Shown in pieces: positions 22,098 to 30,570 of a DNA stretch of 64,000 bases (position 1 is the stretch's first letter; every line of letters begins with the position of its first letter). The notes under the pieces are model-generated. The model saw only the letters and a program-made list of their open reading frames with translations. It had not been told where the DNA came from and made no database searches. Origin of the DNA: a virus. Taxonomy: Duplodnaviria; Caudoviricetes. The position numbers were made by a program, and so were the translations under genes. Location: the IMG/VR virus record IMGVR_UViG_3300028591_000003, positions 96,001-160,000 of that record; one strand, 5' to 3'.

Positions 22098-23123
22098 ATG
22101 AATATAGGTATTAATGATTTAGATGATGATGATTTCGGTATGGGATTTGAACCATCAAGTTAGACTCCTCCTCCAGGTTAGGAACCTCGACATTAGGAGC
22201 ACGACGATGATGATGATTTCTTATCAGATTTTTTGAAAACTAGAGGTATAGATGATCCTTCTAAAATCAAATTTGAAGGAGATGATGGAGGTATAGAAGA
22301 AAGAGATTGGAATTCTTTATCAAAAGAAGAGAAAATTAACATTTTAAATACTCCTCTAGAAACTCATGAAGATAATAAGTCTAATGAATTAACTTAGGAA
22401 GAAATTGATTTTATTAATCAAATTAGACAATCTAATCTAACTCCTAATCAATTCGTAGAAGGAATTAAAAATCAACAAGTTTAGATAGAACCTCAATATA
22501 AAGTAGATGATTTATCAGACGATGAATTATTTTTACTAGACTTAGAATCTAGAGTTGGAGATCTATCTGAAGAAGCAGAAGCTTAGGCATTAGCAAATGC
22601 TAAGCAAAATGAAGATTTATTTAAAAAACAAGTAGAAGGAATTCGTAGAGAATATAAAGAAAGAGAAGATTATGAGACTCAGAGGGAAGAAGCTAGAGTT
22701 GAACAAGAAAAACAAGAAGCTTATAATCAATTCTAGGATACTGTTATTGAGTCTATAAACCAATTTAATAGTATTGGAAATTTAGATTTAAACTTTGATG
22801 ATTCAGATAGAGAAGAACTTGCATAGTTTATGTTATCTAGAGATGAAGCTGGAAATAACTATTTGTGGTAGGCTTTATAGGACCCAGAAACTTTAGTGAA
22901 AGCTGCTTGGTTTATTCTTAATGGGGAAGAGGCCTTAAATGGAATTTCAGATTATTTTGTAAAGTAGATCAAATTGGTTTCAGATAACCAATACAAAAAA
23001 GGTTTTGAAGAAGGAAAAAATGGATAGACTCCTTCCAGACCTTAGGTAGTTATTAGTAAAAATAATAAACAAATAAATCGTCCATCTTATAAAACAATAG
23101 AAGATCTAGATGATGACGATTGA
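22098..23123 (+). CDS. Acidic protein upstream of the major capsid gene, putative scaffolding protein (341 aa)
   Basis: Open with TAG=Gln to TGA 23121-23123. Asp/Glu-rich and helical. Function is inferred from position. Confidence 0.65.
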
Positions 23124-23143
23124 TATAATGGATAATAGAATAT

Positions 23144-23686
23144 ATGAAAATTGCTTCATTTACTTCTAATATCCCCACAATGGGTGATACTAGAACTTAT
23201 GAGGACTTTTATAAGTACCTTGGATTTAAACCTCAACGTCTTGGTGTTGTATCAAGAATGTATGATGATTTAACAGCTTCATTCCTTACTGAATCTTTAA
23301 AGAATATTTTCTATCAAGATGCTAAAGGAAGCGGTAACAAATATCAAAGTATTAATGCTTTAGCATATGACTGGGATATAACTAGCAACTATATCAAAAG
23401 AATTGAATTTGCAGCAGTACCTGAAGGTGATGGTGCAGGTGGTACAGAAATTGTAATGGCTTTCAGAGAAAGATATTACGAAAAGTATGATACCTTCAAA
23501 ATTGAAAATTCTGGTCAATAGTGTATGGTAGTAGGTCGTCCTGTAAGAAAGGGAGATAATTATTGGGAAGTAGTAGTAAGATTAGTTGATAATAACTATG
23601 ATACTGTTCTTGATGTAAGTGCTTGTCAACCTGGCGACAAAACACGTTGGATTAGTGCTCATATGCCCGAATTACACGAGGAGGGT
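23144..23686 (+). CDS. Major capsid protein, exon 1 (spliced product about 476 aa)
   Basis: ORFs 23144 and 23525 are joined by TAG 23519. Ends '...SAHMPELHEEG' at the predicted 5' splice site U23686. Confidence 0.85.
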
Positions 23687-24674
23687 TTAGAAATCCTAGC
23701 CATTGGTATGGCTCTCCTCCGCTTAGTTGCTTAAGTGTAAAATTAAATAAATATTCTTAATTGCTGGAAAGCTAAGTCTTTTAAGATACGCTAATCAGCA
23801 GCGAAGCCTAAGATAACATGAACTCATAGAGAGATGCTTAGGAACGTTCATCGACTAGTCTGAATAGACGTAGGAGAAGAATACTCCGAAATGGAATAAA
23901 TCTAAAATTTAAATATGGAAAAATATATTGTATATCAAACAACTAATAAAATTAATAATAAAATTTATATTGGAGTTCATTGTACTAATAATCCTGATGG
24001 ATTTGATGGTTATATAGGTTGTGGAGTAAGAATTACTCAACCTTGTACTTATATGAATCCTAAAACTCCTTTTCAATATGCTGTTAAAAAATATGGAACA
24101 GGAGCCTTTATTAGGACAACGTTAGCTAAATTTGATACAGAAGAAGAAGCTTTTGAATTAGAGAAAAAAATTGTTAATGAAGAATTTTTAAGACGAGCAG
24201 ATGTATATAATTTAGTTGAAGGTGGAAAATTTCATATAACACATCAAACTCCAATATATATGTATGACTTAGAAGGAAATTTTGAAATGGAATTTAAAGG
24301 GATTAATGAAGCAGTAAGATATGTAAATCCTGACCATAATCAAAGAGGAGGAAGTCATATAATAAGAGCAATAAATCAAGGTCATCAATATCATGGACAC
24401 CAATTTTCTTATGAAAAGGTTGAAAAATTAAAAAATTTAACTAAACATAGAAAAATGTCTACTGTTGAAAGACCTTATGTTGGAGGAAAAGTTGGAAGAT
24501 ATGATGATGATGGAAATCTCTTAGAGACATTTGAAACAATGACAGATTGTGTTAAAGCTGGATATAAAAATGCTAAATTAGTAGCTTTAGGACAAAGAGA
24601 ACATTGTAAAGGATTCGTATTTAAATATTTAGATTAAGATATAGTCAGGCGACGTGGAAACACGATCGGTTATG
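23687..24674 (+). mobile_element. Self-splicing group I intron (phage IA2-like) in the major capsid gene, encoding a homing endonuclease
   Basis: P1 pairs exon GAGGAGGGU with GCUCUCCUC (23711-23719), giving a U.G pair at the splice site. Core elements: AATTGCTGGAAA (~23759), AATCAGCAG (23793), GTTCATCGACTA (23846), AAGATATAGTC (24636). P7 is GACTA/TAGTC. Terminal G24674. Removal restores the frame: EEG|YTKWQSN. Confidence 0.92.
23915..24637 (+). CDS. GIY-YIG homing endonuclease with NUMOD1-like C-terminal repeats (240 aa)
   Basis: 'YIVYQTTNKINNKIYIGVH', conserved 'EEEAFELEK..YN', and two 'YDxxGNxxxxF' repeats. Its TAA stop overlaps the intron S element. Confidence 0.9.
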   Translation: MEKYIVYQTTNKINNKIYIGVHCTNNPDGFDGYIGCGVRITQPCTYMNPKTPFQYAVKKYGTGAFIRTTLAKFDTEEEAFELEKKIVNEEFLRRADVYNLVEGGKFHITHQTPIYMYDLEGNFEMEFKGINEAVRYVNPDHNQRGGSHIIRAINQGHQYHGHQFSYEKVEKLKNLTKHRKMSTVERPYVGGKVGRYDDDGNLLETFETMTDCVKAGYKNAKLVALGQREHCKGFVFKYLD

Positions 24675-25562
24675 TATACAAAATGGCAATCTAATGTAGA
24701 AAAACACCGTGGTTATATACAGACCCACAGATTTGACGCTTCTTATTCAGCACAGTATGCTGCATTAGAAGATGTATTTATTAAAATTTCAGAAGGTAAA
24801 GATTAGGGTAGTCTAACTGAAACTATTTATAAAATGGATACAGTTTAGAAGAACTTACTTGAAACCTTCCTTACAGGACGTAACCAAGCTTTACTTTTCT
24901 CTAAAGGAAACGTAAATCCTCAAACAGAAAAGCCTACTATAGTTGATCCTGATACTAATAGACCTATTTACATTTCAGATGGACTTATTCCTCAAGTAGA
25001 AGCTTATGCAAGTAAATATGCTTACAATAAACTTACTATAAATGTATTTAAGACTGCTTTACAAGCACTTAATGAAAAAGCAGAAAAGCCTACTGGAAAC
25101 CACTATATGTTTATTGTCAACGAAAAAGCTTGGTATGACCTACAAGATGTATTAGATACATACTTAGCACAATATCATACTGATGGAACTTATCTTTGGT
25201 CTGCTAAGGCAGGAGATTATGTTTCTGTAGGTGCTAAAGGATTCGATACATATAATTACGGTGGAAATTCTATTAGCTTTAAAGTTGATAGAACATTCTC
25301 TCGTGAATATGGTTATCAAAAAGGTTATATGTTAGCATTAGATTTAACAGCAGACAAGACTTCTGCTCAACCTCCTATTGCATTATTTACTTTAAAGGGT
25401 GGAGATATGATCTCTAACAAATATATTGGTGTAGGTGGATTGAACGGATTATCTTCTGGTGAAGTTTCTTCACCTGTAGCTGGTTCTAAACTAATTATGT
25501 GGGGATATTCAAGCTTAGCTGTATTTAATCCTTACAGATCGTATGTTATGAGAGAGCTTTGA
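24675..25562 (+). CDS. Major capsid protein, exon 2
   Basis: 'YTKWQSNVEKHRGYIQTHRFD...YISDGLIPQVE...' continues through two TAGs into ORF 25107..25562 (TGA). Confidence 0.85.
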
Positions 25563-25591
25563 TGCTTAAAATAATTGATTAATAATAGATA

Positions 25592-25634
25592 ATGACTAGA
25601 CAACCACTCAATTGTGCTTGTCTAGTCATATTTT
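25592..25634 (+). terminator. Stem-loop after the capsid gene (terminator or mRNA stabiliser)
   Basis: 12-bp inverted repeat ATGACTAGACAA / TTGTCTAGTCAT followed by ATTTT. Confidence 0.65.
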
Positions 25635-25663
25635 AAAATTTTTATATGTTAATAAGAAATAAT

Positions 25664-26530
25664 ATGGCAGAAAGTAAAAAAGAAATTGATTTATCTTCAA
25701 AAATCATACTTAGAAGTGTACGTGGTAAAGTAGGAAATGTAATAAAAATTCAACCTTGTGTAGATCCTGAAACTGGAGAATATGCAGATTGTGTTAAGAG
25801 AGTAGATTCTAACAATGATATGATTCTCTCAGAAAAGGAGAAAAATGATCCCAATAGAGTATATTTTATAAAAGAAACAGCAACATTTGATGTAGTTGAT
25901 GGAACTACTTTCGATTTAACTGATACTAAACAAAGATTTATTTGGGAAGCTATTCGTCATTGTCCGTTAATTGCTCCAGAATATTATGCTAAGGACAAAA
26001 ATGGAAATTCATTAATTAACGGAACTCCTGGAGATTATACCTTAAAAGATTATTTAAATAGAAATCCAAGACGTTTTGGTATTGCAGAACTTTATGTTGA
26101 ACGTCCTGGAGTTGAAGCTAATCGTAGAGTATCTCGTAAGAAACTCAAACACGATGCTGAAACATATATTTATAATGATGAAAGAGGTTATGATGGAAGA
26201 GTACTTAAAACTAAGTTACTTGGACACAGAATGGATGGAATGGCAGATGCTGATGTAACAGATTATCTATTACAAGTTGCTGAAAAAGATCCTCAAAAGA
26301 TTATTAATCTTTATACAGGAGGAGATTCAGCTGTTAGATTATTATTTATAGAAGCTAGAGATAAAAAAGTCATTCGTTATAAAGATAAACTTTACATGTA
26401 TGCAGATATACTTCTAGGAGCAACTGATGATGCTGCTATATTATATCTAAAAGATCCTAAAAATGCTAATGTTTTAAAACTTATTAAAGAGGAAACTTTT
26501 CCTGAATTAATGGGTAAAAAAGAAAAATAA
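25664..26530 (+). CDS. Head-module protein downstream of the capsid gene (288 aa)
   Basis: ORF 25646..26530 with probable start at MAESKK (25664). No TAG. Function unknown. Confidence 0.75.
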   Translation: MAESKKEIDLSSKIILRSVRGKVGNVIKIQPCVDPETGEYADCVKRVDSNNDMILSEKEKNDPNRVYFIKETATFDVVDGTTFDLTDTKQRFIWEAIRHCPLIAPEYYAKDKNGNSLINGTPGDYTLKDYLNRNPRRFGIAELYVERPGVEANRRVSRKKLKHDAETYIYNDERGYDGRVLKTKLLGHRMDGMADADVTDYLLQVAEKDPQKIINLYTGGDSAVRLLFIEARDKKVIRYKDKLYMYADILLGATDDAAILYLKDPKNANVLKLIKEETFPELMGKKEK

Positions 26531-27591: not shown

Positions 27592-28665
27592 ATGTTTAAT
27601 TTCACAACTCAAACAGTTTACAATTAGATTTCTACTACAGGTGCAAATAAAAACTTGTATGTAGCAGCAAATGGAAAAAAGCCAGCTATAAGAGTTGGTA
27701 ATACTAGATTTGATGCAGATAGTATTTTAGATATTCAAGTTAAAAATCCTACAGTAGAAAATCTAGCTAAAGTAACTTTTGATTTATCTAAGGTTCTTAT
27801 TCCATAGAATTCTACTGATAATGAAATAACAGCAAGAATTGTTCTTTATGTTGGACTTTCTATGAATAGTCAAGATGCTTTCTATGCAAATGACTTTGTA
27901 TATAAAGGAAAACCTTTATTCATCGAATTTCCCGTTAAGAAAACTGATACTGTTGATTTACTAGCAAAGAGAGTAAAAAATATCGCAGATAAGTATCTAC
28001 TTGTTATGATGGGTACTGAAAAGATTCTTGATGTAACTTTTGAAGGTACTGCTGCTTCTGGTGATGATCCTGCTACAGGTACAATTACATTTACAGGTGT
28101 AAATGGTTATCAATAGATTAAGAAAGCTATTCTTCAGAAATATGATCCTGAAGCTAAAACAGTAGATTGCTGCTCTAATCAAGGTGAATATATTGATGTA
28201 ATTACCGGTGTTCCTGTAGTTTATACTACAGATGCTGATGGTGTAGTAACTACAAGTAATAATAAGATCGATGCTGATGGCAATACAGTTGCTCTTGAAG
28301 AAAATGAAGTAGCAATTACTCCAGGTCTTGAAGCATTTGGTGATTACAATTGGTTAATCCATAACCTAAGACTTCCAACTGCTGCAAATTATTATCCCTG
28401 GTCTCCTGCAAATAGAATGGGAGAAATTCCTGTTCCTGGACAACAATATACTTAGATTATTATTCGTATGATTAAGGAACGTGATGGAATCATGGGAGAA
28501 ATTGTTGGTGCTAGAGGTACTTCTGTAACTACTCATGTTCTTTATGTTGCTGGAAAACCAACAGCAGGTGCTGCTAAGACCGTATTAGACGCTTTCAAAG
28601 CTCTTGATGGTGTAACAGCAAAAATTAAAACTGATGCTGATACTGCTCTTCAAAGCCCTTTTTAA
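27592..28665 (+). CDS. Putative auxiliary capsid/decoration protein (357 aa), short form
   Basis: ORFs 27862 and 28468 are in frame with ATG 27592. Beta-rich sequence. Ends ...CCT TTT TAA at a slippery site. Confidence 0.65.
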
Positions 28666-28697
28666 ACGGGGGAGGTGTAACCCCCTCACCAACACCT
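28656..28697 (+). other. Programmed -1 ribosomal frameshift signal (C CCU UUU plus predicted H-type pseudoknot)
   Basis: Heptamer 28656-28662 directly before TAA, then a 5-nt spacer. Stem 1 is GGGGG (28668-72) / CCCCC (28681-85). Stem 2 is (A)GGTGT (28673-78) / ACACC(T) (28692-97). The -1 frame is open for 124 codons. Confidence 0.8.
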
Positions 28698-29036
28698 ACG
28701 CCTATCCCGGTAGAGGGTGACGTACAAATCTTTGACGACCCCGAATGCACACGATACGCTGACGGCTCTGTCGCAACGGTTTATGCTCGAATTAATGTGC
28801 CGTGGGGATTTAATGGAGGTTGGGCTGTAGGAAGTACACAGCAAGCAGGCACTCTCCTGGAAGCATTTGGACCAACTACGGCAAATCCAAACGACCCTTA
28901 CGCAATTTCAGTGTGGAATTATTGGGTCTCAAACGATTTTGACACACCTTTTGAGGCAGGTCAAATCGTTGAACTTCAACCAAATCCGAATGCTGACCCC
29001 ATCGCTAACCCGAACGTCATCTTTACCAAACCGTAA
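28662..29036 (+). CDS. -1 frame C-terminal extension (124 aa) of the decoration protein: Pro/Thr linker plus unknown domain
   Basis: Reads LNGGGVTPSPTPTPIPVEGDVQIFDDPECTRYADG... into ORF 28797..29036. No ATG start in this frame. Much more GC-rich than the flanks. Confidence 0.7.
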   Translation, partial: LNGGGVTPSPTPTPIPVEGDVQIFDDPECTRYADGSVATVYARINVPWGFNGGWAVGSTQQAGTLLEAFGPTTANPNDPYAISVWNYWVSNDFDTPFEAGQIVELQPNPNADPIANPNVIFTKP

Positions 29037-29117
29037 TGACACACTCAAGTCGTCATCTAGAAAAAGCAATCGCCGCGGCGTAAACAAATTTTAGTAGATA
29101 CTTATAATTATTTTAAT

Positions 29118-29157
29118 AAGCTAGACCAGGCCTAAAAAGGTCTAGTCTAGCTTTTTT
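29118..29157 (+). terminator. Rho-independent terminator
   Basis: AAGCTAGAC-CAGGCCT-AAA-AGGTCTA-GTCTAGCTT hairpin followed by a T run. Confidence 0.8.
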
Positions 29158-29164
29158 ATTTTAT

Positions 29165-29878
29165 ATGGCTTGGACATCAATTAAACGGCTAGCTGATGCT
29201 GTATTTAATGATATAGTTAGTGGACTTCGTGGTTATCACTAGAATATGTCAATGTCAAAAGAACAATTAGAAGAAGAAATTGTTCAAATGAGGCTAGCAG
29301 TTATTAAAGAATATATGTTAAAAGGAATACTTCCGATAGACGATTTATTAATGTCTATTAATTGTGTTCCAGTAGATTGTGATACTTTAGACAAATGTAA
29401 ATGTGGAGGATTAGTTTGTGGAGAACCTACAGCACATTTTCAAATACCTTAGATACTATTTGATTATGGTTTAGGAAAATCTATAAAATATATAGGATCT
29501 TCTGATAAAAGACATTCTTTTTTAGTATATACTAAACCTATAGATAAAATAAATACATATCAAAAATATAGAAAAAGAGGAAAAAATAAACCTTGGGTTT
29601 ATGTTGATGTAACTCCAAATTCTGAAGGATTATTAGATTGTTATATTTTTGGAGCACCTCTTATTAAGCAAGTTTCTGTTGTAGCTATATTTAAAGATCC
29701 TAGATAGTTAGAAGAATTTCAGTGTAATTGTGACGGAAGTGAAGATAATTAGATGGATATTAATTTTAATTTTTTGGATATTATTATAAAAGATAGACTT
29801 ACATAGCAAAAATTAAGATATTATCGTCAATATTAGGCTCCAATTCTTCCTAACGATTAGACTTATAGCGCCGGATGA
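29165..29878 (+). CDS. Putative tail ring protein (237 aa)
   Basis: ORF 29246 extended in both directions via TAG. Cys cluster 'CVPVDCDTLDKCKCGGLVC', 'VAIFKDP', ends 'PND(Q)TYSAG' then TGA. Confidence 0.65.
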
Positions 29879-29880
29879 TT

Positions 29881-30570
29881 ATGAATTTAAATAATTTTCA
29901 TTATATAGCAGTACTTCTAGATTAGTTTTATGGGTTAGAATTAGAAGATGAGGAATTAGAAGAAATGGGTTTAATGGGATGGGAATTAATCGGAAATAAA
30001 AATACTAAACTTTATCAATTTAGGACTTGTCCCGATTCTAATAATTCAATAAAATTACCTTGTAATGCATCTTCTGTAGAATCCGTTACAACTTCTTATG
30101 AAGATTGGAAAAGAATTACAAACTATTCAGAAAACGGAGATCAAAGAACATCATTCATAGAAAATCATATAGAAGCAGAAAAAATTTACAGAAGTCCTTA
30201 TTATATGTCTGGAAAATTAATTCCTTATGAATTAGTAGACGATACTTTATATTTTACTGGAAATTATGGTACACTGAATATCTTATATAAAGGTATTTTA
30301 GTTGACGAAGAAGGTTTGCCAATGCTTTCAAATAAAGAAGCTATGGCAATAGCTACTTATATCGCATATTATTTAAAATATAAAGAAGGTTTAAAAACAA
30401 ATAATACAGGAATAATTAATCTTGCTAATAATTTAGAATAGAAATGGCTTAAACAGTGTGATTAGGCAAGAGTAACTCCATTAAGTCAAAATGATATGAA
30501 TGAAATACTAAACATAAAAGATAGTTGGAATCGTCACAATTATGGTTTATCTTATAAACCTATACATTAA
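29881..30570 (+). CDS. Putative tail tubular/ring protein (229 aa)
   Basis: Includes ORF 29965. 'ILYKGILVDEEGLPML...AIATYIAY'. TAA 30568-30570. Confidence 0.7.

Follow-up and report, generated by a model that had tools for sequence, protein, structure and literature searches.

A capsid gene of a large crass-like phage carries at its 3' end a foreign cassette, which places a slippery heptamer directly against the stop codon and continues in the -1 frame as an open reading frame (ORF) of 124 codons. The gene lies in a stretch of 64,000 nucleotides (positions 96,001 to 160,000 of IMG/VR record IMGVR_UViG_3300028591_000003), which is referred to here as the window (WIN), and its product is an auxiliary capsid protein (AUX). 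The anatomy of this site, its recurrence at other loci, the homology of the domain behind it and the foreign origin of the cassette can be read directly from the DNA. From these features it appears probable, at roughly 70%, that a programmed -1 ribosomal frameshift produces a minor isoform of 481 aa, consisting of AUX, a linker and an added domain, which would co-assemble into the outer capsid layer.

The putative shift site and the -1 reading frame

The AUX gene ends in the 0-frame with ...CAA AGC CCT TTT TAA. Read in this frame as AGC CCT TTT TAA, the end of the gene has C CCT TTT as an in-phase heptamer of the type X XXY YYZ, which overlaps a run of five T residues (T5) extending into the stop codon (Table 1). 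Eight codons before the TTA at 28662, a stop closes the -1 frame. From the TTA onward it is open, starting LNGGGVTPSPTPTPIP, and a Gly/Pro-Thr linker precedes the core of a beta-domain. The first in-frame ATG, GTG or TTG is a GTG at 28797 (codon 46), and in-frame TAG codons are absent. The predicted junction peptide of the trans-frame product contains ...ALQSPFLNGGGVTPSP... The GC content of the -1 ORF is 49.7%, compared with 33.9% in the upstream gene and 28.7% in the window; by codon position it is 0.59/0.49/0.40, and the third-position value (GC3) of 0.40 compares with 0.13 in the upstream gene. The preliminary description of this DNA had listed the in-phase heptamer, an open -1 frame of 124 codons starting with a linker, the lack of an ATG of its own and of TAG, about 50% GC, and isoforms of 357 and 481 aa. 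All of these were borne out by computation, with the first possible start only at codon 46.

The T5 run is not particular to one assembly. It is the same in L009 and L010, which come from other JGI samples and are 100% identical to the window over 3.3 kb and 1.6 kb, including CCCTTTTTAAACGG. It is also kept in a diverged sister strain (L018) and in seven other assemblies.

The recipient gene

Sequence searches of Pfam, PHROG and PDB returned no match for AUX. Homologues were found in metagenomes (548 proteins, 336-392 aa), and GenBank phages contributed two unannotated matches at 30% identity. An AlphaFold (AF2) model built from 74 sequences had a mean predicted local distance difference test score (pLDDT) of 87.8. 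Its best structural match was gp36 of PhicrAss001 (chain 7qof_a; Foldseek E 4e-7). Alignment by VIA gave Z 11.7 over 267 residues, joining model residues 2-348 to chain residues 6-333 and thus covering both domains, at a sequence identity of ~11%. Matches to FliD and flagellin (Z ~7) were confined to the middle domain (residues 55-248 for FliD). The 333 residues of 7qof_a consist of a PH-like domain (1-74 and 238-333) and a FliD-like domain (75-237), and gp36 forms an outer capsid layer in a 1:1 ratio with the major capsid protein (PMC10172136). Judged by its modelled fold, the gene at 27592-28665 is the gp36-like auxiliary capsid protein of a crassvirus. This identity is also backed by synteny, since ring protein genes lie directly downstream, and it makes the "capsid decoration protein" of the preliminary description more precise.

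The domain in the -1 frame

Relatives of the -1 ORF were gathered by an exhaustive phmmer search, which yielded 95 sequences at E<1e-3 and 51 at E<1e-10. The family core reads PIPVEGDVQIF..C..YA.G..VYARINVPWGF..W...Y...W.DF.S....PF..GQVVE....VFTKP. Members were found in four settings. The domain can lie at the C-terminal end of ~320-aa phage proteins that start with a weakly DUF6266-like part (P0008, P0085, P0091, P0222, P0225-231), it can occur in tandem copies, it can lie beside BspA-type leucine-rich repeats, and it is found in many "stand-alone" ORFs of 115-130 aa that start inside the Pro/Thr linker. The donor-type loci L012 and L020 score 20-21 bits against DUF6266 (PF19781), under the cut-off of 23.4, and 17-28% of the members of ESM-atlas neighbours carry DUF6266. 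The domain was rightly called foreign at the outset, given a conserved family of ~95 members behind a linker, a foreign GC content and the absence of the cassette from close relatives.

An AF2 model of the window domain (pLDDT 96.1) has six strands and is structured from about residue 10 to residue 124. No convincing structural match was found in the PDB by Foldseek (E>1), in a wide VIA search (best Z 3.2) or in the ESM atlas (TM score <= 0.44), and searches of that atlas by structure and by features gave no convincing fold neighbour. An Ig-like fold or Ig-type family was likewise not detected by Pfam or by structure, and Pfam and PHROGs returned nothing for the domain, for neighbouring genes or for the donor proteins. 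Copies of the domain were absent from GenBank phages (tblastn) and from GTDB species genomes, and in IMG/VR, searched by protein, by profile and by the junction DNA pattern, the copy in this genome was the only one. The ratio of nonsynonymous to synonymous substitution rates (dN/dS) of the -1 ORF is 0.30 between the window and L018 and 0.22-0.29 against donors, and by this measure the ORF is under purifying selection.

Among the loci with related proteins, L020 (428-2818) carries tandem DUF6266-like paralogues, the first of 313 aa and the second of 443 aa with the domain in frame, followed by a 438-aa protein and then by a lysozyme/transglycosylase-like protein (phrog_873).

Recurrence of the junction

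The DNA upstream of "stand-alone" domain ORFs was read for junctions. Together with the window, eight loci provide nine distinct -1 junctions, all of the form NNT TTT T plus stop, in which each of the three stop codons is used. The window and L018 share AGC CCT TTT TAA (CCCTTTT-TAA), while GGA AAT TTT TAG (AAATTTT-TAG) is found at L011, L016, L036 and L039, GGG GGT TTT TGA (GGGTTTT-TGA) at L033, and GGG GAT TTT TAG or CGG GAT TTT TAG (GGATTTT-TAG) at L019 and L012, respectively. The upstream gene at the other loci ends ...ILEGG(N/D/G)F-stop with the domain in the -1 frame; L018 has the AUX end instead. A canonical heptamer is present in 7/9 junctions, and the next -1 codon is Leu (UUA or UUG) in 9/9. 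The -1 ORFs are intact at all nine, spanning 119-126 codons (251 in L039), and they end in the ...VFTKP terminus of the family. The GGAUUUU cases suggest that slippage of tRNA-Phe on U UUU beside a stop codon may be the common denominator of these sites.

In-frame fusions of the same domain (P0008, P0222, P0085, P0225-231) have an ILEGGGG/S-linker and contain neither a T-run nor the "xFL" element that marks the junctions. For this reason the T5 forms are not one-base-deletion errors of in-frame fusions.

Three loci depart from the common pattern. At L039 (821-1579) the DUF6266-like gene ends in GGA AAT TTT TAG, and its -1 ORF of 251 codons encodes a linker, a different domain of ~110 aa that is also N-terminal in P0023, and the VEGDVQIF domain; the same junction can thus carry multi-domain extensions. 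At L038 (1882-2348) an ORF of 34 aa ends in a run of nine G followed by TAA, and the -1 frame behind it encodes the domain. The G run may serve as another slippery motif (G GGG GGG) or as a site of transcriptional slippage, or it may reflect a homopolymer error. At L017 (150-260) the DUF6266-like gene and the domain lie in one frame with a single TAG between them (..ILEGGQS-TAG-RGGGVEPTPP..), which is either a case of stop-codon read-through or a sign of a TAG-recoded phage.

Gene callers annotate P0006, P0009, P0011, P0013, P0022, P0027 and P0031 as free proteins of 79-129 aa, with GTG or TTG starts called inside the linker or the domain. Such free-standing calls are probably a systematic mis-annotation of trans-frame C-terminal extensions.

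A candidate stimulatory RNA structure

Five nucleotides past the heptamer, the G5/C5 and GGUGU/ACACC complements that had been named earlier are present and could form the stems S1 and S2 of a pseudoknot (Table 1). A crude pseudoknot score was calculated as the summed energies of two stems, with S1 starting at a spacer of 4-9 nt, and was compared with synonymous recoding of the -1 frame and with dinucleotide shuffles. For the window it gave p 0.03 and p 0.01, respectively. A candidate was found at 9/9 junctions, with scores of -9.8 to -17 and a spacer of 4-8 nt (5 nt in 6/9). The junction of L039 was scored (-9.8) without controls; for the other eight, comparison with synonymous recoding gave p 0.01-0.12 and comparison with dinucleotide shuffles gave 0-0.07. 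Fisher's method over four independent lineages gave roughly p = 1e-3. Two in-frame fusions that served as controls (L020 and L027) scored 0 at the equivalent place.

At five loci (WIN, L018, L019, L016 and L036) a G5 run lies 5 nt past the heptamer with its C5 partner 8-9 nt further on, and between the two runs lies GGUG(U), which is complementary to (A)CACC further downstream. An analogous stem arrangement, built from other sequences, is present at L011, L012, L033 and L039. A search of positions 28400-29300 against Rfam found no RNA family beyond a chance sub-threshold match to a small RNA. Taken over the junctions, the evidence for a stimulator is suggestive.

Origin and exchange of the cassette

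In six IMG/VR relatives (48-58% identity) AUX stops a few codons after a conserved ...ADT.L..P(F/Y) motif, with the terminator hairpin and the next gene 10-30 nt further on; in a seventh relative (L002) the contig ends with the stop codon and does not cover the downstream region. Closer relatives have the same plain ending, with AUX of P0101 (93%) and P0102 (88%) finishing ...LQTPYGN* and the next gene 65 nt on. L024 and L026 match the window DNA as far as 28647 and then from 29102 onward, so that in the window 454 nt replace ~25 nt.

The other side of the exchange is visible in donor-type loci. Nucleotide homology of L019, L016 and L036 to the window starts exactly at 28659, the first T of T5, and upstream of this position the window and donor genes are unrelated. 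In L019 the homology reaches 29081, 45 nt past the domain stop. Since donor homology begins at the first base of T5, the recoding signal was part of the transferred unit. The last six AUX codons of the window (28648-28665) read CTT CAA AGC CCT TTT TAA, and the corresponding end of the 94%-identical L024 (3060-3084) reads TTA TAG ACA CCT TAT GGA AAT TAA. One of the differences is a Gln encoded by CAA in the window and by recoded TAG in L024. These differences indicate either that the left recombination breakpoint lies ~10 nt upstream of T5 or that the end was remodelled later.

Comparison with the sister strain adds a further exchange. L018 and the window are 97.7% identical in AUX, 94.8% in the slip site, stem and linker, 95.5% in the 3' flank of the cassette and 98.7% in the terminator and next gene. 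The domain core is 65.6% identical, with indels. This pattern shows that the core was exchanged between sister phages within conserved cassette ends, and the three differences in junction and linker all fall on synonymous third positions of the -1 frame. The preliminary description had spoken of a swappable cassette and had proposed looking for relatives that keep the heptamer and pseudoknot and vary the domain; L018 is such a relative, and the junction recurs at eight other loci. A diversity-generating retroelement was rejected as the source of the domain differences (40 gap columns and substitutions of all kinds), as was a chimeric assembly (the same junctions in three contigs and the sister strain).

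A broader proposal can be made tentatively, at somewhat less than even odds. Shift site, stop, stimulator, linker and domain may together form a self-contained, horizontally mobile "recoding cassette", which would instantly give sub-stoichiometric display of an exchangeable domain of previously unseen fold wherever it lands on the 3' end of a virion gene, be it AUX in this phage or DUF6266-like genes elsewhere. It would then be a natural form of plug-and-play phage display as opposed to a frameshift that evolved after a chance out-of-frame landing.

Alternative explanations

Several observations weigh against a programmed frameshift. XXXYYYZ heptamers are frequent in the AT-rich window (481 in 64 kb), and an in-phase heptamer within an overlap of ~7 codons has a chance expectation of ~5%. 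The GGATTTT junctions (2/9) are not canonical heptamers, and 5/9 junctions share recent ancestry and hence are not independent. The plain minimum free energy of the shift region is ordinary (z -0.85), and this measure fails to mark junctions elsewhere too. A bulged hairpin of 12 bp competes with the pseudoknot of the window, and two segments are available there as the partner of S2. The coding of Gly-Gly-Gly and Thr-Pro partly explains the G and C runs, S1 alone having a p_syn of 0.05-0.28. Finally, the cassette is very recent in its lineage (absent at 93% protein identity) and could therefore be a neutral passenger. In that case it would lie out of frame, or the donor junction would be inactive in the host, and only the 357-aa AUX would matter. 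Relatives at 93% and 88% protein identity without the cassette, and 548 AUX homologues that do without an extension, speak for this. It is nevertheless unlikely, given that two diverged domain alleles sit on AUX as intact 124-codon ORFs behind an unchanged junction, that the junction and linker differences between them are all synonymous in the -1 frame with a dN/dS of 0.30, and that the junction type is kept with intact ORFs at nine loci.

The same long protein could also arise from an in-frame mRNA if RNA polymerase added one U at T5. In favour of this are the homopolymeric nature of the conserved element, the identical product (SPF-LNGGG) that one extra U would yield, the unusual RNA polymerases of crass-like phages, and the run of nine G with TAA at L038, which occupies an equivalent junction. 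Productive transcriptional slippage, on the other hand, usually takes place on ~7-9 or more U, for which a run of five is short. The junctions moreover bear hallmarks of a ribosomal shift, namely the adjacent stop at 9/9, in-phase heptamers at 7/9 and a stem at the spacers given above, and transcriptional slippage is accordingly held to be quite improbable. A sequencing or assembly error, by which the true genome would have six T and encode a constitutive 481-aa fusion, draws on the fact that the shift sits in a homopolymer where one more T restores the frame. It is very hard to reconcile with three contigs from different samples that are identical at T5, a sister strain that is 2-3% diverged and also has T5 plus TAA, seven other assemblies of unrelated genes with T5 plus stop, and natural in-frame fusions entirely without a T-run. 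Translation of the domain as a separate small gene from an internal or non-canonical start would agree with the 79-129-aa ORFs placed here and in donors by gene callers. However, the window, L018 and L019 have no in-frame ATG, GTG or TTG before the domain core, and a start at codon 46 would remove two of the six strands of the fold. With no start before codon 46 and a fold that spans residues ~10-124, independent initiation would truncate the domain. The start of the ORF is also occupied by an inter-domain linker, homologous to the one in in-frame fusions, and this explanation is held to be very improbable.

Proposed mechanism

In the proposed frameshift, the AUX gene and the cassette would be transcribed as one unit ending at the terminator hairpin. 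Most ribosomes would stop at the UAA and release the 357-aa AUX. A minority would slip back one base on C CCU UUU, either in tandem or through the P-site tRNA-Phe on U UUU with the stop codon in the A site, and would probably be helped by the G5/C5 stem or pseudoknot 5 nt downstream. The shifted ribosomes would then read UUA AAC GGG on to the UAA at 29034-36. The resulting 481-aa product would add a Gly/Pro-Thr linker and a beta domain of ~105 aa to AUX, and would place extra domains on the head surface at sub-stoichiometric levels, presumably as a binding module. Slippage, its efficiency, the nature of the stimulator, surface exposure and a binding function are what we infer from this arrangement, and analogy with head fibres and Ig-like decorations suggests that the C-terminus of AUX may be exposed and that the domain may bind. 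As for its history, shift site, stop, stem, linker, domain and 3' flank would have come in through recombination with a DUF6266-like phage gene that has the same device at its 3' end, and the domain core would have been exchanged later between sister phages.

Genomic context

The phage uses a TAG=Q code, under which nearly all long ORFs of the window contain in-frame TAG. The genome record is 176,443 bp long with terminal repeats. By this length, the TAG recoding and its split genes, the phage appears to fit the "Zeta" crass-like group of PMC7886860. The AUX gene is followed by two ring protein genes (Table 1), an order that is also found in L024-L026. As had been stated, the -1 frame precedes the operon terminator. 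The hairpin was confirmed by direct folding, since its bulge had caused the consensus terminator scan to miss it, and the same hairpin directly follows the AUX gene in L001 and L003-L007. The cassette thus lies inside the transcription unit, 5' of a conserved terminator.

Table 1. Features of the window at and around the 3' end of the AUX gene (window positions).
Feature	Position	Strand	Remarks
AUX gene, short isoform of 357 aa	27592..28665	+	translated under TAG=Q code; four TAG=Q codons
Foreign cassette, 454 nt	28648..29101	+	~50% GC; replaces ~25 nt of closest relatives
Slippery heptamer C CCU UUU	28656..28662	+	in 0-frame phase; CCT 28657-59, TTT 28660-62
T5 run	28659..28663	+	from sequence
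0-frame stop TAA	28663..28665	+	from sequence
-1 ORF, 124 codons + TAA	28662..29036	+	TTA 28662 to TAA 29034-36
Gly/Pro-Thr linker	~28668..28709	+	part of -1 ORF
Beta-domain core	~28710..29033	+	part of -1 ORF
Candidate stimulator (pseudoknot)	28668..28696	+	spacer 5 nt after heptamer
S1, GGGGG / CCCCC	28668-72 / 28681-85	+	sequence complement
S2, GGUGU / ACACC	28674-78 / 28692-96	+	sequence complement
Alternative S2, AGGUGUA / UACGCCU	28673-79 / 28697-703	+	sequence complement
Intrinsic terminator	29118..29159	+	15-bp bulged hairpin 29118-29153 + U-run; -21.7 kcal/mol, z -4.5
Ring-2-like gene	29165..29878	+	weak CrAss_Ring_2 match, E 0.0036
Tail ring protein 1 gene	29875..30570	+	CrAss_Ring_1, 45.4 bits, above cut-off

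Elsewhere in the head module, a TAG-free ORF of 240 aa (23915-24637) carries a NUMOD1 homing-endonuclease DNA-binding module (25.3 bits, above cut-off). It sits between the TAG-containing ORFs 23144-23734 and 24549-25562. Within 23000-25700, no match to a group I intron of Rfam reached the gathering score.

Significance

Crass-like phages dominate gut viromes, and the way in which their heads engage mucus or the surfaces of hosts remains to be explained. To our knowledge, most crass-like lineages lack head fibres of the PhicrAss001 type. If the proposed frameshift is real, a surface module on AUX that is dosed by recoding would be a new route to head display and, as far as the searchable literature goes, the first case of recoding described for a structural gene of Crassvirales. 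If a recoding signal can move from one gene to an unrelated one together with its cargo domain, views on the origin of frameshift-linked accessory domains would change, and a class of "orphan" metagenome ORFs of 110-130 aa would be flagged as mis-annotated C-terminal extensions. The domain itself, a confidently predicted fold without a structural match, is a candidate for structure and ligand work.

Comparison with known systems

In the searchable literature no frameshift of this kind has been described for Crassvirales, and no paper on DUF6266 was found. The claim of novelty in the preliminary description thus holds for crass-like phages, and not for the principle, as frameshift-added C-terminal coat domains are textbook knowledge (PMC5009743). 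Such extensions are established for gene 10 of T7 and T3, for Lactobacillus phage A2 and for Listeria phages A118, A500 and PSA (PMC5009743), and gene 10b of K1F has been used for engineered sub-stoichiometric display (PMC13370021).

The closest parallel is the 10A/10B pair of T7, T3 and K1F, in which a U-rich heptamer close to the 3' end of the capsid gene lets ribosomes slip by -1, giving a short and a long isoform (PMC5009743; PMC13370021). The two isoforms co-assemble, and the long form shows its extra C-terminal segment on a subset of subunits. In the window, unlike in these phages, the shift site abuts the stop codon, and the recipient belongs to the auxiliary outer layer of a crass-like phage instead of being the major capsid protein with its HK97 fold. 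The extension is also a recent import, consisting of a linker and a 105-aa domain with the shift signal included.

Accessory Ig-like domains occur in frame and behind frameshifts on different proteins, for which chance landings have been invoked (PMC5009743). The family described here resembles those of A2 and of A118, A500 and PSA in being a promiscuous domain, found in frame or behind a frameshift, that moves horizontally between structural proteins; no Ig-like or other structural match was found for it. In the model of Fraser et al. (2006), as reviewed in that source, a domain lands out of frame and a frameshift then appears by chance. In the window, by contrast, the signal came with the domain.

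Recoding at the stop codon of a coat gene, with a minor extended coat protein as the result, is also known from A1 of Qbeta and from the CP-RTD of luteoviruses, and the in-frame TAG of L017 recalls these cases. Those are RNA viruses with stop-codon read-through, whereas the site in the window needs a change of frame. Among crassviruses, AUX is like gp36 of PhicrAss001 in its two-domain fold (PH-like and FliD-like) and in its position upstream of ring-protein genes (PMC10172136), and the added domain would be an outward-facing head module like the head fibres gp21 and gp29. Unlike AUX of the window, gp36 has no extension or frameshift, and in PhicrAss001 the modules are carried by separate fibre proteins that are docked in hexon pockets. 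What is new, then, is the host system, a crass-like auxiliary capsid protein, together with a domain without a known fold and a shift signal within a modular transferred cassette. The principle is known from phages of the T7/T3 type, and it is the movement of the shift signal with its domain that is unusual.

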